Source: Bryobacterales bacterium (GTDB lineage Bacteria; Acidobacteriota; Terriglobia; Bryobacterales; Bryobacteraceae). From it: a stretch of DNA of 64,000 bases. The translations under genes were made by a program, and so were the position numbers. Below the pieces are notes generated by a model, which was not told the DNA's origin, searched no databases, and was given only the letters and a program-made list of their open reading frames with translations. Location: assembly GCA_003164035.1 (NCBI GenBank), contig PLRS01000090.1, positions 18,229 through 82,228 of the forward strand. Reading direction: 5' to 3'. Shown piece after piece: positions 7,346 to 28,564 of the stretch; the stretch's first letter is position 1; every line of letters starts with the position of its first letter.

Positions 7346-8230
7346 ATGAGCCGCTTATCTGGAGTGTTGGCATCGGTTGTGGGTGCAATGCTCACTTCGG
7401 CTGTTTGCCATGCGCAAATCTCATGCACACGCGATGGACTCAAAGCTGCAGCCGACCTGTATGTTACCGCGCAGTCCAAGGGCAATCCGGCTAGTCTGCC
7501 TCTGGCGCCGGGATTGGCCTACATCGAGAACTTCAAGGTGGTGAACATCAAAGATGGCCTGATCCGGAAGCCGATGGCGATCGATCACCATCGCAGTCTG
7601 CTCGATACGGCCACCTGCCAGACGTTCACTGAAACGATCGTCACTGACAACTCCAGGCCGTATGTATTGGGCACACGGCTGCGCGTCAATCACGGTCTGA
7701 TCGCCGAGATCGAGATTTTGTGGACCACCACGGGTTACTGGCTGTTTAACGCCGATAACTACCTGAAGTACTCATCCTCCGAGGATTGGAGCGTCATTCC
7801 CACCGCGAAGCGCGATACCCGGGCGATGCTGGTCGCCGCGGCCGGCGCCTACCTGGACGCGTTTCTCGAAAAGAAGACGGACCTGGTGCCATGGGGTTAC
7901 CCCTGCCACCGGACCGAAGGCGGGAAGCGCACGGGCAAAGAACTGCCCACGGACACCTGCGAGGAGGGAGTCCCGAGCGGCGTGAACATCACGAATCGGC
8001 ATTACGTGGTAGATGAGACCATTGGAGCGGTAGTAGCTTTTTGCACGTTCGGGGTCGGCTCGCCTGACGGCGCCGGTGGTGCACCCGACACCCATCTGTT
8101 TCGCCTGAATGAAGGCAAAATCCGGTATGTCCATACGCTCACGCACCTGCTGCAGGCGGATTTTCCGAAACGCCAGGAAGGCGCCGCCACCAATTCAGGC
8201 AGCGGAGCCAAGTCTCCGGAGGGGAAGTAA
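7346..8230 (+). CDS. secreted hypothetical protein
   Basis: ATG preceded by AGGAGGAAAGGA, and a signal peptide (MSRLSGVLASVVGAMLTSAVCHA). No family recognised. Confidence 0.6.
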   Translation: MSRLSGVLASVVGAMLTSAVCHAQISCTRDGLKAAADLYVTAQSKGNPASLPLAPGLAYIENFKVVNIKDGLIRKPMAIDHHRSLLDTATCQTFTETIVTDNSRPYVLGTRLRVNHGLIAEIEILWTTTGYWLFNADNYLKYSSSEDWSVIPTAKRDTRAMLVAAAGAYLDAFLEKKTDLVPWGYPCHRTEGGKRTGKELPTDTCEEGVPSGVNITNRHYVVDETIGAVVAFCTFGVGSPDGAGGAPDTHLFRLNEGKIRYVHTLTHLLQADFPKRQEGAATNSGSGAKSPEGK

Positions 8231-14665: not shown

Positions 14666-15781
14666 ATGAAGAATATCCTGGTCATTTTGGGAACCCGGCC
14701 GGAAGCCATCAAGCTGAGCCCGGTGATTTTGGAGCTTGGCCGAACCGGCGGTTTCCAGGTGCGCTCATGTGCTACGGGCCAGCACCGGCGGATGCTCGAT
14801 CAAGCGCTGGAAGCCTTCGGTATCGTACCGGACCACGACCTGGACATCATGCGGCCGGACCAATCGCCGGCCGAAGCCGCCGCGCGCATTCTGGCGGCCC
14901 TCGATCCGGTTTTGGAGCGCGAGCGGCCGGATATGGTTCTGGTGCAAGGCGATACCATCACCACTCTGTGCGGCGCGCTGGCGGCGTTCTATCGCCGGGT
15001 TCCGGTTGGCCACGTAGAGGCCGGGCTGCGCACGGGCGACATGCGGCAGCCGTTTCCCGAAGAGATGAACCGGGTGGTGACCGGGCGGCTGGCCGCGCTC
15101 CACTTCGCCGCGACCGAGGGCGCCGCCGAAAACCTGCGGCGCGAAGGCCTTGACGCCGCCACGATTCATGTTACCGGCAATACCGGGATCGATGCCGTGC
15201 TGCACGTCAAGGCGGCACTGGAAACGGGAGCGCTGGCCAGCCGGGGCTTGCCGGTGATCGACCCGGCGATGAAGCTGATCGTGGCGACGACCCATCGCCG
15301 CGAGAGCTTCGGCGACGGTCTGGAGCACATCTGCCGCGCATTGGCGACGCTGGCGTGCCGCGAGGACGTGCGGATTGTGTTGCCCGTGCATCCCAACCCG
15401 AACGTCCGCGGTCCAGTGGAGCGGTGGCTGGGCAGTTCGCCGCGGGTGAGCCTGGTGGAACCGATGGATTACGTTTCGTTCGTGGACCTGATGAGGCGCG
15501 CCTACCTGATCGTCACCGATTCCGGCGGAATCCAGGAGGAGGCGCCATCGCTGGGCAAACCGGTGCTGGTGGTACGGGAAAAAACGGAGCGCCCCGAGGC
15601 GGTCCGGGCGGGAACGGTTAAGCTGGTGGGCACGGACTTCGACCGCATCGTGGGAGAAGCCACCCGGCTGCTGGATTTACCCGACGAATACCGGCGTATG
15701 GCGGGTATCCACAATCCGTACGGCGATGGCCAGGCGAGCCCGCGCATCGTCCGGGCGATGGAGGAGTTCCTGGCTCTCTGA
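14666..15781 (+). CDS. wecB: UDP-N-acetylglucosamine 2-epimerase (non-hydrolysing)
   Basis: The N-terminus MKNILVILGTRPEAIKLSPV and overall collinearity match the WecB/MnaA family. Confidence 0.9.
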   Translation: MKNILVILGTRPEAIKLSPVILELGRTGGFQVRSCATGQHRRMLDQALEAFGIVPDHDLDIMRPDQSPAEAAARILAALDPVLERERPDMVLVQGDTITTLCGALAAFYRRVPVGHVEAGLRTGDMRQPFPEEMNRVVTGRLAALHFAATEGAAENLRREGLDAATIHVTGNTGIDAVLHVKAALETGALASRGLPVIDPAMKLIVATTHRRESFGDGLEHICRALATLACREDVRIVLPVHPNPNVRGPVERWLGSSPRVSLVEPMDYVSFVDLMRRAYLIVTDSGGIQEEAPSLGKPVLVVREKTERPEAVRAGTVKLVGTDFDRIVGEATRLLDLPDEYRRMAGIHNPYGDGQASPRIVRAMEEFLAL

Positions 15782-15823: not shown

Positions 15824-16237
15824 TTAATGTACTTTGCAGAATGATGGCCCAGGAGGCCAATCGCTAAGGAGGAAAGTGCGTTTGGCTCCCGTCATGCCAA
15901 CGCTAAAGCCAGCCCGGAGAGCGTAGAAGCGGTATCGGGCGCGATGCCAAAATGGCGCGGGTCGTGGCACGAGACCGGCCGGATCTCCATTGAACGCCAC
16001 TTCCAGATAGCCCGTGATCGCATCCCTCAAGCTATGCAGGGCATCGTGTAGAGTTTTTCCATAAACTAATAAATCAAGGTCGATACACTCTGCCGAGTAT
16101 TCGTCCTGTTTATTCTTGAAAACTATACAGCGCAGCACCAAACCATTTGGTGGCAATTGCTTAGCGCCGTGCCTAAGGTTTGGATCTTTGCGCTCGGCAA
16201 CAGGGGACACCACGCACCTCTGCTTAACTGGTAGCAT
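15824..16237 (-). CDS. HicB-like (UPF0150) antitoxin-domain protein; start uncertain
   Basis: YSAECIDLDLLVYGKTLHDALHSLRDAITGYLE fits the HicB N-terminal domain pattern. In-frame TTG/GTG at 16141/16138 are alternative starts. The local sequence is visibly AT-richer than its surroundings. Confidence 0.45.
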   Translation of the reverse strand: MLPVKQRCVVSPVAERKDPNLRHGAKQLPPNGLVLRCIVFKNKQDEYSAECIDLDLLVYGKTLHDALHSLRDAITGYLEVAFNGDPAGLVPRPAPFWHRARYRFYALRAGFSVGMTGAKRTFLLSDWPPGPSFCKVH

Positions 16238-17596: not shown

Positions 17597-18370
17597 ATGA
17601 ACAGCATCGCTATCGTCGCCTTCGGCTGCAGGATTTTAGTGGTTTCGGATTGCGGCCGGGCACTGGAGACGCTCGACCGCTTCCTGCTGCCGTCACTGCC
17701 CAGGGCTGCCCCGGACGAAGCCGGTTCCGAAATCCTTCTTCGTGTCCTGTGCGACGGCGATGGGTTCCAGCTTATTTGCAATGGCGCCGCGGAGCCGGCA
17801 CGCGACTTACGGGCGCTGACGGTTGGCGCCGTGAGGCTGATTGACGAAGCCATCGTGGCACGGCTGTCGAATCTATCCGCCGTTCATGCCGGCGCGGTTC
17901 AGTTTGGGGACAGGGCGCTGCTTTTGCCGGGCGGAACCCATGCCGGAAAATCGGCGCTGGTGGCCGAGCTTTTGCGCTGTGGCGCGGTCTATCTCTCGGA
18001 TGAATACGCTTTGATCGACGATCGGGGACGGGCGCAAGCCTATCCCCGGCCGCTCCTGCTACGCAACGGAGGAGCCGAGCAGGTTCCGCGGCTACCGGAG
18101 GAATTCCACGCCGCCGTGGCGAACGCTCCGGTACCGGTCGGCTGGATTCTCGCTCTCCAATACGACGCCGCGGCAGACTGGCGATTGGCCGCGACGGCGC
18201 AAAGCGAAGCGCTGCTGGCCCTGTTGCGGAACACTCCCCATGTGTTGGCCGAAACGCCGCGGGTATTGCCGGCCCTCACACGCGCCTCGGCCGGCTCCAA
18301 GTGTTACGCCGGCAAACGCGGCGATGCCGCCGATGCCGCCGGGCACATTCTGCGGCTGGTGGCGGAGTGA
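17597..18370 (+). CDS. HPr kinase-like P-loop kinase (HprK-related)
   Basis: VHAGAVQFGDRALLLPGGTHAGKSALVAELLRCGAVYLSDEYALI parallels the HprK C-terminal catalytic core, with Walker A GxxxxGKS. The ATG at 17597 is preferred; the ORF opens at 17501. Confidence 0.7.
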   Translation: MNSIAIVAFGCRILVVSDCGRALETLDRFLLPSLPRAAPDEAGSEILLRVLCDGDGFQLICNGAAEPARDLRALTVGAVRLIDEAIVARLSNLSAVHAGAVQFGDRALLLPGGTHAGKSALVAELLRCGAVYLSDEYALIDDRGRAQAYPRPLLLRNGGAEQVPRLPEEFHAAVANAPVPVGWILALQYDAAADWRLAATAQSEALLALLRNTPHVLAETPRVLPALTRASAGSKCYAGKRGDAADAAGHILRLVAE

Positions 18371-18374
18371 GGGC

Positions 18375-19481
18375 GTGAATCCGAAGCGAATCGATCCGGA
18401 ACGCCTGCTGCAGGCCTGCTTCGGGGACGCCGGGGAAAGCCAGCTCGCGTTCGAAAGCTGCGTTGCCGCCGATATTGCTTCTGGAGGCGCCGGGATCGAA
18501 CCTGCTGCCCGCCGCTTGCTGCCCTTTTTCTATCGGCGCTGGTGCGCGTCCTCTAGCGGCAGTCTGATCGAAACCGCCCACCGCGTTTACCTTGCTACGT
18601 GGCAACAGAACCGCGAACGCATGGCCTCGGCCGCATCGGTGCTCCGCCAACTGGAAAGCGCGGGCATCGAATGCATGCTGCTCAAGGGCGCGGCGCTAAC
18701 GCTCGGTCACTATCGCGACTACGGCCTGCGCTCCATGGGCGACTTCGACCTGCTGATTCATCACGCCGACGTCGAGCGCGCCGCCGGCCTGCTGCTTCAA
18801 GATGGATGGACCGCGGAAGAGGGCTGTTCGGCGGAGGCGATCCGGCGGCAATCCCGCGTGCGCCACGCCTGGCAATTCACCAGGGGCGACACCGAAAACT
18901 GCGATCTTCACTGGCGCCCCCTGGCCAGATGCTATTCTCCGCAAGTCGCCGGCATGTTCTGGGAAGGAGCCGAAGCCATCACGCTGGATGGCCAAGCCGC
19001 TCGGATTCCCTGCCCTACCGACCAGTTCTTTCATGTTTGCGTACATGCCATGCATTGGGAGTGGACCCGGAATCTGTACTGGATCGCCGATGCTCTGACC
19101 GTGGTTCGCGACGCCGAACCCAATTGGGACCGGGCCGCGGCCCTAGCCGCCAGTTCCGAAATGCAGACGCGCTTCACCGAGGCGCTACTGGTTCTCGCCT
19201 CGCACTTCCGTTTGGCCGTCCCCGAACAGGCCTTTGCCGCCGAGGCGCCCGCATGGGAGCGTCGCGAATACATGCTCATGCAGAAGCCGTGTCCGCTGGG
19301 GCCTTTGGACAGTATCGCCTGGCACCTGTACAATTTCCGGCGCTTGCGGCCGTTCGATTCCGAGTGGCGTGGGGCTCCCCGGTGGGTCGCCCTCCCGCAA
19401 TATCTGGCTGCTTTCCTGGATGCCCCAACCTGGGGTTCTCTGCTGGCGAGGTTGTGGACCGAGTTCAGGCTGCGCGTTTGA
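18375..19481 (+). CDS. PF14907-type (NTP_transf_5) uncharacterised nucleotidyltransferase family protein
   Basis: IECMLLKGAALTLGHYRDYGLRSMGDFDLLI ... CDLHWRP matches my memory of this family. The GTG at 18375 lies 4 nt after the kinase stop; an upstream ATG at 18321 is the alternative. Confidence 0.65.
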   Translation: MNPKRIDPERLLQACFGDAGESQLAFESCVAADIASGGAGIEPAARRLLPFFYRRWCASSSGSLIETAHRVYLATWQQNRERMASAASVLRQLESAGIECMLLKGAALTLGHYRDYGLRSMGDFDLLIHHADVERAAGLLLQDGWTAEEGCSAEAIRRQSRVRHAWQFTRGDTENCDLHWRPLARCYSPQVAGMFWEGAEAITLDGQAARIPCPTDQFFHVCVHAMHWEWTRNLYWIADALTVVRDAEPNWDRAAALAASSEMQTRFTEALLVLASHFRLAVPEQAFAAEAPAWERREYMLMQKPCPLGPLDSIAWHLYNFRRLRPFDSEWRGAPRWVALPQYLAAFLDAPTWGSLLARLWTEFRLRV

Positions 19482-19587
19482 AAGACGCAGTCTTTTCCCG
19501 GGGATTGAGGGAAGAGCCTGTCAAATCAAGCCCCGCCGGGCCTATCCCCTTTGTTCATCGGCTCGGCGCTTATCGGTGGTAAATAGG

Positions 19588-19725
19588 ACTACGACAACGA
19601 CTACCACAACGACGACGACCACCACCACAGCGGCGCCCGGGTCGATCGTCTCGGTAACCCCGACGTTCGTCTGCGAAACGTCCGCCCAGGTCACGTTCAC
19701 AATCACCGTTGAAGTGTACGGTTCT
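19588..19725 (+). other. Orphan partial paralogue of the poly-Thr / Ig-like module (14 Thr codons, AAP, then the start of a beta-domain)
   Basis: It translates to T14-AAPGSIVSVTPTFVCETSAQVTFTITVEVYGS. This aligns with T17-PAPPQIQGVSPSTSVCGQNFQSFVITG of the downstream gene. There is no credible start, and similarity is lost after about 19725. Confidence 0.55.
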
Positions 19726-19834
19726 CGACAAAGGCGAACGGCGGCGAACGGTAAGACCAGGACTTTTGTGATAGCATCTGTGGTTTCGAATATTCCCGGT
19801 GCAGGCTTCCCTTCCGCGGAGAACTGGAGAACGC

Positions 19835-20683
19835 ATGAATCGCGACGAATTCCGAGTGCGGCGAGTCGCCTCGGAAAACCTGGTGGTGGAGCAGTTGCCA
19901 GACGGCTCGACCGCGGTGTTCGATACCCGCACCGGGACTATCCATTCCCTGAACGCGAGCGCGGCCGCCGCGTTTGAGGCGTGTCGCGAAAGTTGCACCG
20001 TGGCCTGGGTGGCGCGGGGGATGAGCGAACTGTTGCATGAGGCTGTGACCGAAGAGGTCGCGCTTCGGGCCGTCTCCGAGTTGGAAGCGGCCGGTCTGGT
20101 GGTGTGTTCGGGTTCCGTGGAACTGGACGGCCAGGGCGCCTCGCGGAGGTCCATGCTGCAAGCGGTTTCCACCGTGGCGTTGCCGGTGGTTCTATCGCTC
20201 GGAGCGGCCGAACAGAAGGCTTTTGCGATTGGAGCCGGTTCCGGAACGACGACCAGCACGACTACCACAACGGCAGCTCCCACCACCACCACGACTACGA
20301 CAACAACGACAACAGCGGCCCCAACAACGACTACCACAACAACAACCACGACGACCACCACCACGACGACCACGCCGGCGCCCCCGCAGATTCAAGGTGT
20401 GTCCCCATCCACCTCCGTGTGCGGCCAGAATTTTCAGTCATTCGTAATCACGGGTCTGAACACGAACTGGACTGCATCCACGACCGTGTCGGCGGCTTTG
20501 CCCGGGATGAGCGTCACCTCCGTTACCTTCAACAGCGCTACCCAACTGACCGTGACCGTAGTGGGCTTCACTGGCTACACCTACTATCTCTACTGGGGCG
20601 CTGCCGTGGACCTGGTGGTGACCACCGGCGCCCAGAACCTCCCGACTGGCGGCACCCTCCTCTTCGGAACGTGCGCCGTCTGA
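19835..20683 (+). CDS. PqqD/RRE-like domain fused to Tat-like signal, poly-threonine tract and Ig-like C-terminal domain
   Basis: GGAGAA lies 4 nt before the ATG at 19835. The N-terminal roughly 95 aa (VVEQLPDGSTAVFDTRTGTIHSLNASAAAAFEAC...ELEAAGLV) look PqqD-like. They are followed by SRRSMLQAVSTVALPVVLSLGAAEQKAFA, then 43 residues with 36 Thr, then a beta-rich domain. Confidence 0.7.
   Translation: MNRDEFRVRRVASENLVVEQLPDGSTAVFDTRTGTIHSLNASAAAAFEACRESCTVAWVARGMSELLHEAVTEEVALRAVSELEAAGLVVCSGSVELDGQGASRRSMLQAVSTVALPVVLSLGAAEQKAFAIGAGSGTTTSTTTTTAAPTTTTTTTTTTTAAPTTTTTTTTTTTTTTTTTPAPPQIQGVSPSTSVCGQNFQSFVITGLNTNWTASTTVSAALPGMSVTSVTFNSATQLTVTVVGFTGYTYYLYWGAAVDLVVTTGAQNLPTGGTLLFGTCAV
20246..20374 (+). 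repeat. Poly-threonine coding tract (T3-S-T5-AAP-T11-AAP-T17)
   Basis: Read directly. Mixed ACG/ACC/ACA/ACT codons are used. The motif ACGACTACCACAAC recurs here and again at 19596..19609. Confidence 0.95.
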
Positions 20684-20815
20684 AATCGGGCTTTTCCCGC
20701 CGATACCCTAAAGCAATTGGGGGCCGGCCGCGGCCCCTTGACTTAACACATGATTTCCGAAATACACACCCGTTTCCCGAGGAGCTTGTGGGGCAGGCGA
20801 ATCGCCTAGCCCATA

Positions 20816-22261
20816 ATGTCCGATAACCCCTCCCCCGCAACCCGGCAACTCCCGCTTCCGCGGCTGCTGGAGATCCTTGCTCAGCTCCCACCGTCTTCGC
20901 CTCTCTTCAAACATGCGGCGGGGCTGCTCGATACCTGCCTGGTTCCGGGTTGGGACCAGGTCCCCCGCCAGCGCGCGTCCGGCCCCAAGCGTTTCCTGAC
21001 CATCGGGATGGCCACCTACGACGACTATGACGGCGTCTACTTTTCCGTCCAGGCCATCCGCCTATACCATCCCGAGATTACGCCGGACACGGAAATCCTG
21101 GTGCTCGACAACAACCCTGGGGGACCTTGCTCGGCGGCCTTGAAGAAGCTGGAAGGCCAGGTGCCCGGTTACCGTTACATCGCCTACGATCGATCGACCG
21201 GAACCGCGATTCGCGACCTGCTTTTTCGCGAGGCGAATTCCGATTACGTGCTGGCGATGGATGCGCACGTACTGTTCGCTCCCCATTCGCTGGCCCGGCT
21301 GGTTGCGTTTCTGAAGACACAGCCCGATTCGGTGGACCTTTGGCAAGGCCCACTGCTATACGACAACCAGACCAGCTTGTCCACGCATTTTGCTCCGGAG
21401 TGGTCGGGTGGCATGTACGGCGCCTGGCGGACCGACGAGCGCGGCACCGATCCGGACGCGCCGCCTTTTGAAATCCCCATGCAGGGACTGGGCGCGTTTG
21501 CCTGCCGCAGACAGGCCTGGCCCGGTTTCAATCCACGTTTGAGCGGATTCGGCGGCGAGGAAGGCTACCTTCACGAAAAGATCCGGCGCAATGGCGGCAA
21601 GGTGTTCTGCCTCCCGTTCCTGCGCTGGATGCACCGCTTCGACCGCCCGCAGGGTACCCGCTATCCCGTCTCCTGGAAAGACCGCATCCGCAATTACCTC
21701 ATCGAGTATGATGAGCTCGGTCTCGATCCGGCCCCCGTCGTGGCTCATTTCGAGAAACACCTGGCACCCGGCGAGGCACGCCCGCTGGTGGAAGCCGCCC
21801 AGCGCGAGATCGCGGGCCCCTTCCACATGTTCGACGGGATCTACCGCACCAATGCGCGCGGCCTTGACGACCCGCCCAATATCCGCCACTTCACGGCCGT
21901 GGCGAACCTCTTCGACCCGGATATCGGCCGCGCGCTGGCGCATCGATCGATTCTGGAAGAAGCTCGCCGCCAGTGCCTGACGAGCGTCTTGATCCTGGAC
22001 GACGACTTTGAATTCGGTCCTGAAGCGATCGAAAAGTTCGACGTTGCGCTCCGCGGTTTGCGCGGATGCGAGTGGCGGGGATGCCGCCTCCCCGGCGGGA
22101 TGGCGTTTGCCGGCGGGGTCTTCAGCCGCGCTCTGGCCGAGATTCCCACAACGCCTTCCGCGATCGCGTTGTGGCTGCGCGAGCGGAGCGGTCTGGATGA
22201 ATATTACACGCAAGCCTTCGCCAACGCTCCCGAGCAGGCCGATGCGAAACTTCGCCTATAG
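20816..22261 (+). CDS. two-domain glycosyltransferase (N-terminal GT-A/GT2-like with D-x-H, C-terminal GT25-like)
   Basis: The N-terminal half has EILVLDNNPGG, LAMDAHVLF and GFGGEEGYLHEKIRRNGG, which are GT-A features. The C-terminal IGRALAHRSILEEARRQCLTSVLILDDDFEF resembles the GT25 signature GCxLSH...ILEDD. Confidence 0.65.
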   Translation: MSDNPSPATRQLPLPRLLEILAQLPPSSPLFKHAAGLLDTCLVPGWDQVPRQRASGPKRFLTIGMATYDDYDGVYFSVQAIRLYHPEITPDTEILVLDNNPGGPCSAALKKLEGQVPGYRYIAYDRSTGTAIRDLLFREANSDYVLAMDAHVLFAPHSLARLVAFLKTQPDSVDLWQGPLLYDNQTSLSTHFAPEWSGGMYGAWRTDERGTDPDAPPFEIPMQGLGAFACRRQAWPGFNPRLSGFGGEEGYLHEKIRRNGGKVFCLPFLRWMHRFDRPQGTRYPVSWKDRIRNYLIEYDELGLDPAPVVAHFEKHLAPGEARPLVEAAQREIAGPFHMFDGIYRTNARGLDDPPNIRHFTAVANLFDPDIGRALAHRSILEEARRQCLTSVLILDDDFEFGPEAIEKFDVALRGLRGCEWRGCRLPGGMAFAGGVFSRALAEIPTTPSAIALWLRERSGLDEYYTQAFANAPEQADAKLRL

Positions 22262-25007: not shown

Positions 25008-25982
25008 TTGCGCCAAATTGTGCTAGTTTTGTTTTTGTTGGCGGGGTACGCGCCGGCTTGGGCCCAAACTGCGCTCAAGCTGGAGAAAAGCGGCGACGCC
25101 ATGGGGTCTACTTATACGGTGGTGCTCTACGGCACCGACCGGGTGGCCATGGAAGCCGCCGCCGACGCGGCGCTCGACGAGGCACGGCGCCTGGACGATC
25201 TGTTGTCGAATTATAAGCCCACCAGCGAATGGAGCCGCGTGAACCAGCGCGCCGCCGGGGGCCCGGTCCGGATTTCCGAAGAGCTGTTCCAGTTGTTCGC
25301 GGCCTGCCTCGAATACAGCCGCGAAAGTGAAGGGGCGTTTGATATTTCGGTGGGCCCGTTGATGAAGGTTTGGGGGTTTTACAAAGATACGGGACATCTG
25401 CCGCACCGCGCCGAAGTGATGACTGCGCTCGAAAAAACCGGCTACCGGCACGTGCATCTCGATGCGGCCGCTCAGACTGTGTGGTTCGACCGGGCGGGCG
25501 TGGAACTCGATCCCGGCGGCATCGGCAAAGGTTATGCCGTGGATCGCATGGTCGAAGTGCTGCGCCGGATGCACGTAGAAACGGCGCTGGTGGCCGGGTC
25601 GGGCAGCAGCATTTACGGGCTGGGCGCGCCGCCCGATTCGCCCGGCGGCTGGCCCATCGATATCCGCGATCCGTGGCATCCGAGACAGAAGGCCGCGGAT
25701 GTGTTTTTGAAGGATATGTCCCTGTCCACCTCCGGCAGTTACGAGAAGTTCTTCCGCGCGGAAGGACGCATCTATGCCCATATCATGGATCCGCGCACGG
25801 GATACCCGGCGCAGGGAAGCGTGGCGGTTTCGGTCGTGGCTCCGCGAACCATCGACAGCGAAGCTTGGGCCAAACCCTATTTCGTGAATGGCCGCCAGTG
25901 GGCGGCCCAGCATAAGGCAAAGGATTTTCGCGTTTTCTTTTGCCAGGACAGGACGGATCACCCATGCGCGTGGCTCCAATGA
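25008..25982 (+). CDS. apbE: FAD:protein FMN transferase (ApbE family)
   Basis: AFDISVGPLMKVWGF, GGIGKGYAVDRM and YAHIMDPRTGYP blocks. The start is TTG 25008 or GTG 25020. Confidence 0.85.
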   Translation: MRQIVLVLFLLAGYAPAWAQTALKLEKSGDAMGSTYTVVLYGTDRVAMEAAADAALDEARRLDDLLSNYKPTSEWSRVNQRAAGGPVRISEELFQLFAACLEYSRESEGAFDISVGPLMKVWGFYKDTGHLPHRAEVMTALEKTGYRHVHLDAAAQTVWFDRAGVELDPGGIGKGYAVDRMVEVLRRMHVETALVAGSGSSIYGLGAPPDSPGGWPIDIRDPWHPRQKAADVFLKDMSLSTSGSYEKFFRAEGRIYAHIMDPRTGYPAQGSVAVSVVAPRTIDSEAWAKPYFVNGRQWAAQHKAKDFRVFFCQDRTDHPCAWLQ

Positions 25983-27001
25983 CAAGCCGCTTCCTCGACG
26001 CCTGCCGCCGCCGGCCCACCGATGTCCGGCCGGTATGGTTCATGCGGCAGGCCGGCCGCTATCTCAAGCAGTACCGGCACATCCGCGAGCGGTATAGCAT
26101 CCTCGAAATGTGTAAACGGCCCGACCTGGCGTCCACCGTCACTCTCCAGCCGGTCGAATTGCTGGACGTCGACGCCGCCATCATCTTCGCCGATCTGCTG
26201 CTGCCGGTCGAGCCCATGGGCCTCAAGTTGCGCTATGTCACCGGCGAGGGTCCCGTCATCGATAATCCGGTGCGCACCACCGACGACGTGGATTCCCTCT
26301 CCACCGCCAATACCGACGACCTCGGCTACGTCGGCGAATCCATACAGCAGGTAGTCCGCGCCCTGGCCGGCCGCGTTCCCGTCATCGGTTTCGTGGGCGC
26401 GCCCTTCACCATGGCCAGTTACATGATCGAAGGCGGCGCCTCCCGCAATTTCGTCCGCACCAAGCGCCTGATGTATAGCGACGAGACCCTCTGGCGCCGT
26501 TTGATGGGGAAGATCGTCGACGTGCTGGCCCCCTTCGCCCACCTCCAGGTGGCTTCTGGCGCCCGCGCCATCCAGGTGTTCGATAGCTGGGTGGGCGCGC
26601 TCGGCTCGGACGATTACGTACGCTTTGCCGCCCCCTATTCCCGCGCCCTCATCGAACGCATCCGCTCCACGGGCGTGCCGGTCATCCATTTCGGTACCGG
26701 CGCCTCCGGCTTTTTCCGCGAGCTGCACGCCGCCGGAGGCGACGTCATGGGCGTCGACTGGCGCATGAATATCGATCAGGCCTGGGTGGATATCAGCTAC
26801 CGCTCCGCCATTCAGGGCAACCTCGACCCGGTGGCGCTGTTCGCTCCCTTGCACGAGCTGCGCACCAAGGTCCACGAACTGCTCAAGCGCACCGGTACCC
26901 GTCCCGGCCACATTTTCAATCTGGGCCACGGCATCCTGCCCGACACCCCTCCCGAACACGTCCGCGCCGTGGTGCAGATGGTGCGCGAGTTCAAACCGTA
27001 G
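25979..27001 (+). CDS. hemE: uroporphyrinogen decarboxylase
   Basis: RPVWFMRQAGRYLKQYR signature. ATGA overlap with the apbE stop. Confidence 0.9.
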   Translation: MTSRFLDACRRRPTDVRPVWFMRQAGRYLKQYRHIRERYSILEMCKRPDLASTVTLQPVELLDVDAAIIFADLLLPVEPMGLKLRYVTGEGPVIDNPVRTTDDVDSLSTANTDDLGYVGESIQQVVRALAGRVPVIGFVGAPFTMASYMIEGGASRNFVRTKRLMYSDETLWRRLMGKIVDVLAPFAHLQVASGARAIQVFDSWVGALGSDDYVRFAAPYSRALIERIRSTGVPVIHFGTGASGFFRELHAAGGDVMGVDWRMNIDQAWVDISYRSAIQGNLDPVALFAPLHELRTKVHELLKRTGTRPGHIFNLGHGILPDTPPEHVRAVVQMVREFKP

Positions 27002-27187: not shown

Positions 27188-28564
27188 ATGCGCGTAGCCA
27201 TCATTGGCGGCGGCATCTCCGGGCTCTCCACCGCCTACTACCTGGCCCGCGGCGGCATCGCCTCCACCATCGTCGAATCGCGGCCCCGCCTGGGCGGCGT
27301 CATCCAAACCGAACGCGTCGACGGCTGCACTGTCGAAGCCGGCCCCGATAGCTTCCTCTCCGCCAAACCCGCCGCTCTCGATCTCATCGGCGAGCTGGGC
27401 CTCGGGAGTGAAGTCATCGGCTCCAACGACCGCCTGCGCCGCACCTACATCCGCCGCCGCGGCCGTCTGGTGCCGCTGCCTGATGGCCTCATGATGATGG
27501 TGCCCACCCGCATCCTGCCCATGCTTGCCAGCCCGCTGGTCGGCGCCGGCACCAAGCTGCGCATGGGCCTGGAGCTGTTTCGCGCGCCGAAGCCCAGGGC
27601 CGCCGACCAATCCGTGGCCGAATTCATCCGCGAGCACTACGGCCGGGAAGCCGTCGATTATCTGGCCGAACCGCTGCTGTCCGGCGTCTATGGCGGCGAT
27701 CCCGCCCAGCTCAGCGTGCGCAGCGTTCTAGGCCGATTCGTCGAACTCGCCGAGCGCTACGGCAGCCTGTCCCGCGGGATGCTGGCCGAACGCTCGAAAG
27801 CCGCCCGCGCCCATGCCGAGCCCGCCCCTCTTTTCCGCACCCTTAAAGGCGGCCTGCAGCAAATGACCGACGCGGTTGCCGCCGCCATCGCCGGCAAGGC
27901 CGTGGTTCGCCACGCGCGCGTCGAAACCGTGGAGCGCACCGCCGCCGGTTTTCGCTTGCGCCTCAGTGGCGATTGGCTCGATGCCGACCGCCTCGTCGTC
28001 GCCACCGAAGCACATACCGCCGCCCGTTATTTGGCGCCCGTCGATGGCCGTCTCGCCGAACTGCTCGGCGCCGTCCCGTACAGCTCGTCCATGACCGTGG
28101 CCCTCGGGTTCGACGCCGCCGATTTCGCCGGCCCCTTGCCCGATGGATTCGGCTTTCTCGTCCCCCGCGTCGAGCGCCGCCGCCTGGTGGCCTGCACCTG
28201 GGTGGGCACCAAGTTCCCTTACCGGGCTCCCGTCAGCAAGCTGGTGGCGCGCTGCTTTCTGGGCGGCTGGCAGGATCCCGCCATCCTCGACCAGAGCGAC
28301 GAAGCCGTGCTCGCCATCGTCCGCGAGGAACTGCGCGACATCGCCGGCGTCGCCGCCCAGCCCCGTTTTCATCGCATCTTCCGCTGGCCCCGTTCCATGG
28401 CTCAGTACACCGTCGGCCACGCCGCCCGCCTGGCCGAAATTGAGTCCCGCGCCTCCGCCATCCCCGGCCTGTACCTGGCCGGCAACGCTTATCAAGGCAT
28501 CGGCATCCCCGATTGCATCCGTATGGGCAAAGCCGCCGCCGAAGCCATCCGCGCCGCCAGCTAG
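27188..28564 (+). CDS. hemY: protoporphyrinogen/coproporphyrinogen oxidase (HemY-type, FAD)
   Basis: MRVAIIGGGISGLSTAYYL dinucleotide fold, EAGPDSFL, and the C-terminal LAGNAYQGIGIPDCI. Confidence 0.9.
   Translation: MRVAIIGGGISGLSTAYYLARGGIASTIVESRPRLGGVIQTERVDGCTVEAGPDSFLSAKPAALDLIGELGLGSEVIGSNDRLRRTYIRRRGRLVPLPDGLMMMVPTRILPMLASPLVGAGTKLRMGLELFRAPKPRAADQSVAEFIREHYGREAVDYLAEPLLSGVYGGDPAQLSVRSVLGRFVELAERYGSLSRGMLAERSKAARAHAEPAPLFRTLKGGLQQMTDAVAAAIAGKAVVRHARVETVERTAAGFRLRLSGDWLDADRLVVATEAHTAARYLAPVDGRLAELLGAVPYSSSMTVALGFDAADFAGPLPDGFGFLVPRVERRRLVACTWVGTKFPYRAPVSKLVARCFLGGWQDPAILDQSDEAVLAIVREELRDIAGVAAQPRFHRIFRWPRSMAQYTVGHAARLAEIESRASAIPGLYLAGNAYQGIGIPDCIRMGKAAAEAIRAAS

Follow-up and report, generated by a model that had tools for sequence, protein, structure and literature searches.

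Four forward-strand ORFs lie between positions 17597 and 22261 of a 64,000-nt stretch of DNA (the window) from a soil Bryobacterales bacterium (Acidobacteriota; GCA_003164035.1, contig PLRS01000090.1). They encode, in order, a kinase, a nucleotidyltransferase, a protein with an N-terminal PqqD domain (PqqD-X) and a glycosyltransferase (GT; Table 1). An ORF check bore out the initial annotation, which had placed four same-strand genes at these coordinates. The kinase start is backed by the alignment of homologues, the nucleotidyltransferase opens with GTG 4 nt past the kinase stop, as had been noted, and the third ORF spans 19799–20683, its likely ATG at 19835 giving the 282-aa protein. Within the window's 353-bp gap lies nothing but the remnant of a second cargo gene: 14 Thr and then the opening ~28 aa of an Ig-like domain, which resemble the way the domains of P0001 and P0251 begin. 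The translated remnant has neither a start nor an RRE or signal part. It would fit the decay of a tandem paralogue; 1–4 tandem copies of PqqD-X are present in other genomes.

Table 1. Coordinates of the genes and features of the locus within the window.
Feature	Position	Strand	Basis
HprK-like P-loop kinase, 257 aa	17597..18370	+	TIGR04352 core match, PF07475, invariant H/K/D/D
PF14907 (NTP_transf_5) nucleotidyltransferase, 368 aa	18375..19481	+	PF14907 E 2e-37
Second cargo gene, putative remnant	19576..19710	+	Direct reading and translation
PqqD-X pre-protein, 282 aa: RRE, Tat-like signal, Ser, poly-Thr stalk, Ig-like domain	19835..20683	+	
PqqD/RRE domain, aa 1–95	19835..20119	+	PF05402, AF2, Foldseek
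Twin-arginine signal-like segment, aa 103–131, SRRSMLQAVSTVALPVVLSLGAAEQKAFA, ends AxA	20141..20227	+	
Codon for Ser136, 5 residues past AxA; candidate site of phosphorylation or phospho-glycosylation	20240..20242	+	Conservation
Poly-Thr stalk, aa 138–180, proposed O-glycosylation substrate of GT	20246..20374	+	Direct reading
Ig-like cargo domain, aa 185–282	20387..20680	+	AF2, Foldseek
Two-domain glycosyltransferase (GT), 481 aa	20816..22261	+	PF00535, PF01755, AF2, Foldseek

The kinase, described initially as HprK-like, matches TIGR04352 (HprK_rel_A) over its core only (E 1.4e-11; 44 bits, where the cut-off is 200), and PF07475 (Hpr_kinase_C) matches 24 of 29 members of its family at E ≤ 1 (best 3.5e-5). 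Residues H97, K118, D135 and D141 are invariant among homologues, and the core can be aligned, over only ~50 residues, with both HprK (1ko7) and BsfK, a kinase of lasso precursors; the invariant set matches the H-K-D-D motif reported to be essential in lasso kinases (PMC9266682). The nucleotidyltransferase was correctly assigned to PF14907 (129 bits, cut-off 31), and its K104-G105, G122-D123-x-D125 and D172, invariant or nearly so in 72 homologues, fit an intact Pol-beta-type active site. For the third protein, the window RRE alone gives a weak PqqD signal (PF05402 E 0.004; TIGR04353 E 5e-5, 24 bits against a cut-off of 35); the PqqD-like N terminus proposed for it is upheld by the family, in which PF05402 matches 26 of 26 aligned members (best 2.5e-8) and TIGR04353 22 of 26, and by the AF2 model (pLDDT >90 for residues 11–90), which superposes on the lasso RRE TbiB1 (5v1v_A) with a target-normalised TM of 0.70 and has TigE as its top Foldseek match. 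Neither the window kinase nor the PqqD domain reaches the curated thresholds (TIGR04352 for the kinase, TIGR04353 and PF05402 for the PqqD domain); judged by these, the two are relatives of TIGR04352 and TIGR04353 rather than members.

This uncharacterised cassette is present in more than 80 acidobacterial species-level genomes. Among 85 related acidobacterial loci, the kinase occurs in all 85, PqqD-X in 83 and the nucleotidyltransferase in 74, in line with the co-localisation that had been anticipated; these three are the sole conserved neighbours, and the same loci yielded no fourth conserved partner adjoining the cassette, no conserved dedicated exporter or protease near it and no conserved association with wecB. 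Five of five GT homologues picked by GT similarity alone sit inside the same cassette, and one orthologous locus (L094) has a four-gene order identical to that of the window. Since the same genes occur together in dozens of independent genomes, chance adjacency is excluded, and the view that the four genes make up one functional unit is supported.

The joining in cis of a PqqD domain to its putative substrate had been taken for a novelty of this locus; it is instead standard in a large acidobacterial family, found in 83/85 loci as 1–4 tandem genes adjoining the kinase. Each PqqD-X consists of an RRE domain, a twin-arginine signal-like segment that runs to AxA, a Ser 5 residues on and a hypervariable tail of 2–257 residues. 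The conserved N-terminal module, the hypervariable tails, the tandem copies (as in RiPP precursor families) and the failure to find a conserved small ORF near the cassette together support the fusion in cis of a recognition domain and its probable substrate. An unlikely alternative is that PqqD-X is a membrane-anchored (N-in) RRE scaffold, its hydrophobic segment serving as a transmembrane anchor and its tails as extracytoplasmic decoration, which presents to kinase and nucleotidyltransferase a substrate other than itself, whether peptide or protein. RRE proteins do normally work in trans, NCBIfam names TIGR04353 a 'peptide chaperone', ~20 hydrophobic residues could cross a membrane, and the tails of merely 2–8 residues in some members are difficult to account for as cargo and look pointless as products; however, neither a small ORF nor a fourth partner is conserved beside the cassette, tandem copies, hypervariable C-termini and a boundary Ser are the mark of precursors rather than of chaperones, and the GT co-varies with the composition of PqqD-X's own tail (see below).

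The signal-like segment, the 36-Thr tract and the Ig-like domain described initially are all present in the third ORF. Within the segment, RR occurs in every retained member because the matching pattern demanded it; [ST] precedes it in 85% of members, x-[VFLM]-[LI] follows, and a ~20-residue hydrophobic stretch (mean Kyte-Doolittle 1.57) leads to E-Q-[RK]-A-x-A. The segment is better conserved than the RRE domain and, on its sequence, appears to be a twin-arginine (Tat)-type motif specifically. The [ST]-R-R-x-[FVLM]-[LI] motif, the h-region, the basic c-region residue, the AxA and the two-Cys bias of the tails (exactly two Cys in 66 of 81 Cys-bearing tails) point to export. A folded domain of ~100 aa ahead of a Tat or Sec signal is nevertheless unusual, and plain signal peptides do not typically have an E/Q-bearing c-region or so strongly conserved an h-region. 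The segment might instead be a leader-like sequence bound by the RRE in cis, with an unlinked protease freeing the tail as a RiPP that stays in the cytoplasm or leaves by another route, as its conservation far beyond that of ordinary signal peptides, its atypical internal position and the strand at which AF2 hints for VVLS (pLDDT just 64–71), like that of RRE-bound leader peptides, would allow. This is improbable given the very good fit to the Tat consensus and AxA end (the RR being pattern-required), the lack of any protease or exporter linked to the cassette, and the paired Cys, Ig-like, SpaA-like and tailspike-chaperone cargos and mucin-like stalks, which are typical of extracytoplasmic proteins.

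Ser occupies position +5 after AxA in nearly all complete members (107 of 110 in one set, 84 of 91 in another), and the exceptions that were checked are mis-registered regex matches. Information content drops sharply right after this position, and beyond the signal-like segment no other hydroxyl residue is invariant, which makes Ser136 a candidate modification site. Gly24 and Ser25 of the RRE domain (LPDGS motif) are also invariant in the PqqD-X family, and Ser25 could be the kinase target in place of Ser136. The kinase might then be regulatory, phosphorylating Ser25 or another protein to switch binding or export, with Ser136 part of a cleavage or recognition motif and the GT making the only lasting modification; HprK/P indeed acts on a folded protein (HPr), and HprK-type enzymes can run backwards as phosphorylases. 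That role is doubtful, because characterised HprK-like kinases that occur together with RRE and PF14907 genes modify an unstructured precursor Ser (PMC9266682, PMC10368454), the nucleotidyltransferase partner has precedent on peptide phospho-Ser, and conservation falls steeply exactly past Ser136.

The stalk behind Ser136 contains exactly 36 Thr, one S and two AAP breaks, is encoded by mixed Thr codons, and has a Tn-AAP pattern also seen in the independent homologues P0155 and P0156. It leads to an Ig-like domain (AF2 beta-sandwich, pLDDT 75–91, with Ig-fold Foldseek matches) that has one Cys at its start and another close to its C-terminus and that repeats 5–26 times within giant proteins. 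Poly-Thr is not conserved: it is lacking in ~85% of PqqD-X tails, most of which are Pro-rich, Cys-loop or of other types and share, the invariant Ser aside, no hydroxyl-rich feature. The proposal that poly-Thr is the conserved target of kinase and nucleotidyltransferase therefore finds no support, since both enzymes are widespread in the family; the invariant residue is Ser136. It could still be argued that kinase, nucleotidyltransferase and GT all act on poly-Thr, its Thr being phosphorylated, nucleotidylylated or phospho-glycosylated, and that the Ser is merely a processing or structural residue, as 36 hydroxyls stand right behind the recognition module, GT-kinase fusions in relatives would let both act on one stretch, and polyphosphorylation is possible for lasso kinases (PMC9266682). 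There is little to recommend this when the kinase is present in 85/85 loci and the nucleotidyltransferase in 74/85, Thr-rich tails are almost confined to GT loci and most tails have only the invariant Ser in common.

The suggested link between GT and Thr tract, in contrast, is strengthened. Of the tails encoded at GT-bearing loci 12 of 15 are Thr-rich, versus 2 of 91 elsewhere, both of the latter just 3 residues long; within the clade of the window, loci with and without the GT are intermixed (~7 inferred GT gains or losses), and in an out-of-sample test on four loci picked only by GT similarity three were positive and one marginal. A single ORF encodes GT and kinase in L010, L015, L016 and L073, as it does for many 700–800-aa proteins in the databases. 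As had been proposed, the GT combines an N-terminal GT-A domain (GT2/GT27-like, DxH; PF00535 E 1e-10) with a C-terminal GT25-like domain, also GT-A; PF01755 (GT25) gives a weak signal for the window GT (E 0.003) and is recorded for many homologues, which combine it with PF00535. D149-x-H151 and G-G-E-E-G are invariant among homologues. In its AF2 model (pLDDT 88, pTM 0.85), the best predicted structural neighbours are GT27 ppGalNAc-transferases (E ~1e-12) and the GT25 enzyme COLGALT1 (E ~1e-11), which make up the entire Foldseek top 50, and ppGalNAc-T10 is the only phmmer match in the PDB, a likeness that the over-representation of GalNAc-transferases among PDB GT-A folds may inflate. Those enzymes share the DxH metal motif and GGE(E) motif with the window GT and take protein hydroxyls as acceptors, Thr/Ser-rich tracts in the case of ppGalNAc-transferases, and COLGALT1 has the same layout of two GT-A domains. 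The window GT differs in its low identity (just 13–18%), its bacterial origin and its lack of a ricin-type lectin domain, and its GT25-like domain is truncated in several homologues; it has no membrane or signal domain detected by Pfam and no hydrophobic segment obvious by eye. The tracking of Thr-rich tails with GT, the GT-kinase fusions and a fold nearest to mucin-type polypeptide GalNAc-transferases thus support a tie between GT and Thr tract. It is very improbable that the GT serves ordinary LPS or exopolysaccharide synthesis and is a mere neighbour of the cassette: GT2 and GT25 enzymes are mostly annotated with such roles, JGI labels some homologues 'GR25 family glycosyltransferase involved in LPS biosynthesis' and wecB lies 1.8 kb upstream, but wecB is not conserved as a neighbour, all five sampled GT homologues lie within the cassette, many genomes encode GT and kinase as one ORF, GT presence predicts Thr-rich tails and the structural neighbours are protein O-glycosyltransferases.

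With the domain assignments, gene linkage, fusions, invariant Ser and GT/Thr-rich-tail correlation established, the locus is best read, at a probability of about 0.5, as a self-guided, RiPP-like protein-tailoring and export cassette with PqqD-X as its own substrate, for which we infer the chemistry in full. The PqqD/RRE domain would stay cytoplasmic and dock the tailoring enzymes in cis, and may also hold the adjacent conserved signal segment. The kinase would phosphorylate Ser136, where the disordered region begins, and the nucleotidyltransferase would add a hexosyl or nucleotidyl group to phospho-Ser136, as PsmN adds hexose to the phospho-Ser of pseudomycoidin (PMC9266682). In the GT-bearing subfamily only, which includes the window, the GT27-like/GT25-like enzyme would O-glycosylate the poly-Thr stalk in the cytoplasm to give a mucin-like linker. 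The modified PqqD-X would leave via Tat (or Sec), with signal peptidase I cleaving after A129-F130-A131 to yield a product of ~151 aa in which a modified N-terminus is followed by the glycosylated stalk and an Ig-like domain with a disulfide bond.

The cassette would thereby be a variant of RRE-guided tailoring in which the substrate brings its own docking domain and export signal and is probably decorated before secretion. The same three families co-occur in the lasso-peptide tailoring set (B1 RRE; kinases PadeK, ThcoK, SyanK and BsfK; PF14907 proteins PsmN and BsfN), with which the window shares the H-K-D-D kinase core; there, the RRE BsfB1 greatly boosted phosphorylation by BsfK of the BsfA core Ser3, near the leader/core junction (PMC10368454), and PsmN acts on phospho-Ser (PMC9266682). 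Neither in the window nor in related loci was a lasso cyclase, a B2 protease or an ABC exporter found. Unlike the lasso set, the window RRE is joined in cis to the substrate, which bears a twin-arginine signal-like segment, and folded domains reaching ~250 aa can serve as cargo, suggestive of the tailoring of a protein rather than a peptide. The 'HPr-rel-A system' of TIGRFAMs/NCBIfam, a bioinformatic definition only, pairs HprK-related kinase A (TIGR04352) with a PqqD-family peptide chaperone (TIGR04353); these are the best NCBIfam matches of the window kinase and PqqD domain, and JGI names the homologue P0012 accordingly, but the window proteins are far under the equivalog cut-offs given above, and the 74 positions of the TIGR04353 model take in neither the signal-like segment nor the invariant Ser nor the variable tail. 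No paper using the term was found in the literature searched.

In the serine-rich repeat proteins (GtfA/B, accessory Sec), which have an unusually long N-terminal export signal, and with the autotransporter heptosyltransferases, a cytoplasmic GT decorates a hydroxyl-rich adhesin before export. Like the window, these systems have a dedicated GT for a long Ser/Thr tract in an exported surface protein encoded nearby; they differ in enzyme families and export route and have no RRE domain, kinase or nucleotidyltransferase. NHLP and Nif11 are long-leader RiPP precursor families, and bufferin precursors bear Sec signals, a precedent for export of a ribosomal product by a general signal. Such families resemble PqqD-X in their large conserved N-terminal module and hypervariable C-terminal part, often in tandem, whereas the leader module of PqqD-X is itself an RRE fold, its signal is internal, behind that fold, and tailoring falls to a kinase, a nucleotidyltransferase and a GT in place of cyclodehydratases, radical SAM or MNIO enzymes.

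The initial annotation described a tandem array of an HprK-like kinase, a PF14907 nucleotidyltransferase, a PqqD fusion protein (here PqqD-X) and a two-domain glycosyltransferase (here GT). It is confirmed, since the four ORFs are present on the forward strand at 17597-22261 and their family assignments are supported (ORFs, profiles, models).

Coordinates of the cassette genes and of nearby features in the window
Feature	Position	Strand	Remark
wecB-type UDP-GlcNAc 2-epimerase	14666-15781	+	1.8 kb upstream of the cassette
137-aa ORF	15824-16237	-	no match in Pfam or NCBIfam
HprK-like kinase	17597-18370	+	start set by homologue alignment
PF14907 nucleotidyltransferase	18375-19481	+	GTG start, 4 nt past the kinase stop
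Decayed cargo fragment	19576-19710	+	14 Thr, then AAPGSIVSVTPTFVCETSAQVTFTITVE; without start codon, RRE or signal part
PqqD-X	19799 or 19835 to 20683	+	ORF listed from GTG 19799; ATG 19835, after GGAGAA, gives 282 aa
GT	20816-22261	+	from the ORF listing
hemE/hemY-type ORF	25940-27001		named from its translation alone
hemE/hemY-type ORF	27188-28564		named from its translation alone

The chromosomal context is ordinary: the flanking genes (wecB, a small ORF, DUF1223, a TonB-dependent receptor, ApbE and hemE/hemY-type genes, with DnaE, BamA and TamB farther off) look unrelated to the cassette, and base composition is flat over the whole window. The wecB-type gene was considered as a member of the system and set aside, as it is not a conserved cassette neighbour among related loci. 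A scan of the locus for promoters and terminators gave matches at chance level. An anti-phage defense system was rejected because none of the four proteins has a PADLOC match. Between the genes for the nucleotidyltransferase and PqqD-X, 353 bp (19482-19834) hold no separate small precursor ORF, their sole content being the decayed cargo fragment; AAPGSIVSVTPTFVCETSAQVTFTITVE corresponds to the start of an Ig-like cargo domain that resembles those of two database proteins (P0001 and P0251) more closely than it does the window's own. The fragment probably derives from a tandem PqqD-X paralogue that has been lost.

Scanning one genome per species with the kinase alignment returned 79 loci, all in Acidobacteriota; the window proteins were then searched against the ORFs of these loci and of contigs found via the other proteins. 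A three-gene core emerged, comprising the kinase (85/85 loci), the PqqD-like protein (83/85) and the PF14907 enzyme (74/85), with no further conserved neighbor genes in the 85 loci; the additional 'clusters' were antisense shadow ORFs or variable genes. The kinase, nucleotidyltransferase, PqqD-X and GT genes of the window almost certainly form one functional cassette.

The kinase carries the motifs of the HPr kinase/phosphorylase superfamily (AVHAG...PGGTHAGKS...SDEYALID), with a P-loop (GxxGxGKS/T), a conserved His before it and acidic residues after it; H97, K118, D135, and D141 are invariant in an alignment of 29 homologues. The window protein has no Pfam match at E ≤ 1; PF07475 (Hpr_kinase_C) matches 24 of the 29 family members, with a best E of 3.5e-5. 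TIGR04352 (HprK-related kinase A) matches over the P-loop core (E 1.4e-11, profile positions 91-164 of 280) at 44 bits against an equivalog cut-off of 200, and by this comparison the kinase is a relative of that family and not a member. Its core aligns with HprK 1ko7, for which the profile search of the PDB was weak (E 0.3) but at the correct motif, and, at 25 bits, with BsfK (sequence translated from PMC10368454), an experimentally characterized Ser kinase of a lasso precursor (PMC10368454). The nucleotidyltransferase is an unambiguous member of PF14907 (NTP_transf_5; 129.5 bits, gathering threshold 31.2), in which Pol-beta-type residues K104-G105, G122-D123-x-D125, and D172 are conserved across 72 homologues.

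Taken as a single sequence, the window PqqD-X gives a weak PqqD signal that falls below both curated cut-offs (TIGR04353, 24.3 vs. 35 bits; PF05402, 17.9 vs. 23.4 bits); its relatives match PF05402 in 26/26 cases and TIGR04353 in 22/26 at E ≤ 0.01. In the AF2 model, residues 11-90 have pLDDT >90 and form a beta-sheet (strands 7-10, 16-20, 26-30, and 35-39) followed by three helices (41-49, 56-67, and 73-85). This is the fold of a RiPP recognition element (RRE), and Foldseek superposes it on the leader-bound lasso RRE TbiB1 (5v1v_A; target-normalized TM 0.70, rmsd 2.9). Leader peptides bind RREs as a beta-strand; the prediction of VVLS 119-122 as a strand (pLDDT 64-71) is the only hint, from the model, of leader-peptide binding by this putative RRE. 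The RRE domain also contains an invariant Ser at residue 25 (Gly24-Ser25 in an LPDGS motif, alignment A2), a second candidate modification site judging from its conservation; the equivalent position of BsfB1, the single lasso RRE compared by eye, is not Ser.

Beyond the RRE domain, members of the family share a layout in which [ST]-R-R-x-[VFLM]-[LI] leads into a hydrophobic stretch of ~20 residues, with a near-invariant core A-L-P-[LV]-V-[LV]-S-L-T, and then E-Q-[RK]-A-x-A. Four variable residues, a Ser, and an unconserved tail of 2-257 residues follow. The Ser, which was left out of the search pattern, is found in 107/110 and 84/91 matched sequences, and the exceptions that were checked are mis-registered regex matches; directly past it, the information content drops from 2-4 bits to <1 bit. 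The corresponding residue of the window protein is Ser136 (codon 20240-20242). Loci encode one to four tandem PqqD-X copies, the window having one copy and the remnant. Searched with the family profile, 1.8 billion cluster representatives yielded 4106 matches at E ≤ 0.001 (1022 at E ≤ 1e-10); among the best 150 of the 4106, PqqD-X-type proteins are mixed with giant proteins that match only via Ig-like repeats.

An N-terminal module that is conserved up to a sharp boundary and followed by hypervariable C-termini, in tandem copies next to tailoring enzymes, is the signature of a precursor family, not of a stand-alone chaperone. The proposal that recognition domain and substrate are fused in cis is thereby supported; the fusion is the family norm, not a peculiarity of this locus. 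An assembly artefact, in the fusion or in the poly-Thr tract, is rejected by the occurrence of the architecture in 207 distinct sequences, by Tn-AAP in independent metagenomic homologues and by the mixed Thr codons. PqqD-X is likely to be the substrate in cis. A rival is that it serves as a membrane-anchored scaffold for a separate substrate, which the conserved hydrophobic stretch would suit; the hypervariability past the Ser argues for a substrate.

A conserved leader, a hypervariable core and tandem copies beside tailoring enzymes are also the features of a RiPP precursor, and a competing reading makes the product a non-exported RiPP-like peptide. The window cargo is not a small peptide: it comprises ~151 aa, and the C-terminal 98 residues of PqqD-X form an Ig-like sandwich (AF2, Foldseek). 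Across the family, cargos are of Ig-like or SpaA-like type or carry a tailspike-chaperone-like motif. The segment between RRE and cargo is signal-like and agrees well with the twin-arginine (Tat) consensus, with a Tat motif, a moderately hydrophobic h-region, and a c-region that has a basic residue and ends in AxA (SRRSML...ALPVVLSLGAAEQKAFA in the window). In the family profile, [ST] stands at 85%, followed by [VFLM] and then [LI] at 83%, and A-x-A at 81-94%; the RR of every retained member was demanded by the matching pattern. The segment is not at the extreme N-terminus, a folded RRE domain of ~100 aa lying upstream, and its h-region exceeds the RRE domain in conservation; both features are unusual for a signal. 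Of the tails containing Cys, 66/81 have exactly two, and the conserved neighbors in the 85 loci include neither an exporter nor a protease. The putative signal, the paired Cys, the surface-type cargos and the lack of a linked exporter or protease would fit export by a general pathway with cleavage after AFA131; export with cleavage is about as likely as not.

The Thr tract of the window protein (exactly 36 Thr in residues 138-180) had been proposed as the target of the kinase, the nucleotidyltransferase and the glycosyltransferase alike. The family does not conserve poly-Thr, its tails being mostly Pro-rich, Cys-loop, His-rich or hydrophobic, and this rival competes for the first two enzymes with the candidate site at the invariant Ser. 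The part of the proposal that tied GT to the Thr tract is well supported by comparison. In the first locus set, tails average a Thr fraction of 0.34 where GT is present and 0.06 where it is absent (Mann-Whitney p = 4e-5), and a run of at least four Thr occurs in 1/90 tails from loci without GT. In an out-of-sample test, five GT homologues were picked by GT similarity alone; all five sit in the same cassette, and the post-Ser region is Thr-rich in the four such loci with DNA, reaching 68-73% Thr in the three copies of L097 and being weakest in L098. The contingency table of Thr-rich tail against GT has the counts 12, 3, 2, and 89, the two exceptions being tails of three residues. Phylogenetic inertia is rejected as the source of the correlation, since GT-positive and GT-negative loci interleave in the window's clade of the N-terminal-module tree, with ~7 parsimony changes.

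The orthologous locus L094 has the gene order of the window, and in four other loci GT and kinase form a single ORF (L010:6312-8771, L015:6657-8777, L016:4534-6627, and L073:6556-8646). Such fusions of ~700-820 aa occur in many Bryobacterales-type genomes (proteins P0298-P0308); P0303 has PF07475 on record and others have PF27840 (ScmC), which we take to be the HprK-like protein of the SynChlorMet cassette. The rival that GT is an unrelated neighbor of the cassette has these fusions and the linkage of all five out-of-sample homologues against it.

At the sequence level, the only significant Pfam match of GT is GT2 (PF00535); its C-terminal half scores 17.8 bits for PF01755 (GT25; gathering threshold 24), and many homologues have both families on record. 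Loci L009, L015, L016, and L073 have lost part of the GT25-like domain. D149-x-H151 and GFGGEEG, which correspond to the DxH and Gal/GalNAc-T (WGGE) motifs of GT27, are invariant. The AF2 model, with a GT-A fold (pLDDT 88, pTM 0.85), has as its best 50 PDB matches in Foldseek only polypeptide GalNAc-transferases (GT27; E ~1e-12 to GalNAc-T2, T4, T7, and T10) or COLGALT1 (GT25), the latter being a weak match in sequence and a clear one in structure. A phmmer search of the PDB gave one match, ppGalNAc-T10 (E 0.045, over the GGE motif); GT lacks the ricin-type lectin domain, has a GT25-like second domain and does not qualify as GT27 at the sequence level. Since Thr-rich tails track GT, GT-kinase fusions occur and the fold resembles that of GalNAc-transferases, O-glycosylation of the Thr stalk is the probable role of GT.

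We infer a chain of steps to which, as a whole, we assign a probability of about 0.5. The RRE domain would recruit the kinase in cis, as suggested by the great enhancement by BsfB1 of BsfK phosphorylation of Ser3 in the BsfA core (PMC10368454), and the kinase would phosphorylate Ser136. The PF14907 enzyme would elaborate the phospho-Ser, a step proposed because PsmN installs hexoses on the phospho-Ser of pseudomycoidin (PMC9266682); GT would glycosylate the Thr stalk, and PqqD-X would be exported and cleaved after AFA131. Ser136 is slightly more likely than not to be the kinase target. A rival makes the kinase regulatory, with the invariant Ser25 of the RRE domain as its target; both residues are conserved, and Ser136 marks the boundary at which conservation ends.

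A more ambitious composite, which we consider unlikely to hold in all its parts, makes the PqqD-X proteins secretory pre-proteins of a self-guided kind not described before. The RRE, placed before an internal twin-arginine signal, would recruit kinase and nucleotidyltransferase; a phospho-linked sugar or nucleotide would be put on the invariant Ser, five residues past the signal-peptidase site, to tag the N-terminus for maturation or anchoring with a logic like that of the lipobox Cys of lipoproteins; and in one branch a bacterial GT27-like enzyme would build true mucin-type O-glycans on poly-Thr in the cytoplasm, before the protein is exported folded and modified. The RRE might in addition be an inbuilt chaperone with a proofreading role, retaining the signal until tailoring has finished.

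Among systems studied by experiment, the nearest is the set that tailors lasso peptides with a B1 RRE, an HprK-like kinase and a PF14907 nucleotidyltransferase. Unlike that set, the window locus lacks all of the lasso-defining genes, its RRE is fused to the proposed substrate, it has a Tat-like signal and the substrates would be whole proteins. A lasso-peptide cluster was rejected as the identity of the locus, the annotated window ORFs including no Asn-synthetase-like cyclase, B2 transglutaminase-like protease or ABC exporter, and there being no other conserved neighbor. In the databases, the nearest concept is the 'HPr-rel-A system' (TIGR04352 + TIGR04353), both of whose curated cut-offs the window proteins miss. 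In the library searched, no paper names that system, and nothing relevant appears on PqqD or RiPPs with twin-arginine signals or on 'HprK-related kinase' and ScmC, alone or with PqqD. The locus is best read as a known principle in a distinct architecture, with a kinase and a nucleotidyltransferase carrying out tailoring under RRE guidance.

On this reading, RRE-guided tailoring would reach whole secreted proteins that have the recognition element built in, and the triad of HprK-like kinase, PF14907 enzyme and PqqD, so far known only as database models and from a small number of lasso clusters, gains a function that can be tested, the invariant Ser being its one precise candidate site. GT is a possible bacterial mucin-type O-glycosyltransferase, its structure being closest to that class and its presence predicting Thr-rich stalks, and it could serve glyco-engineering. 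Acidobacteriota, a soil phylum both dominant and poorly understood, commonly carry the cassette, and cultured carriers (Tunturiibacter psychrotolerans X4BP1, T. gelidiferens M8UP28, and Edaphobacter aggregans) exist, so the hypothesis is directly testable.

The hypervariable tails, with their Cys loops and their poly-Pro, His-rich and hydrophobic types, may represent a store of secreted peptides or surface proteins. Recurring tail classes among the PqqD-X ORFs of the Acidobacteriaceae loci (L011-L085, ORFs immediately upstream of position 8000) include paired-Cys loops (KPCATAVPCK), hydrophobic GGxLGWLLGLLGL ends, NVPKNHKRNF-type ends and poly-Pro runs of up to ~45 residues. His-rich tails, which might bind metal, occur in L054 (HDHHHHHHRHDH), L069, and P0218. 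The richest cassette, L097:1558-8641, has three tandem PqqD-X genes with tails of 68-73% Thr, two GT2/GT25 genes, the kinase and the nucleotidyltransferase. Other cargo behind the PqqD-X module includes an SDxRLKE motif, by eye like the intramolecular chaperone motif of phage tailspikes, and a SpaA/prealbumin-like domain; carriers of non-Ig cargo are P0186, P0194, P0219, P0164, P0168, L096:4174-4914, and L098:4060-4815. Giant proteins of 670-5600 aa (P0161, P0165, P0170, P0171, P0287, and others), which look like adhesins, contain 5-26 tandem copies of the window's own Ig-like cargo domain.
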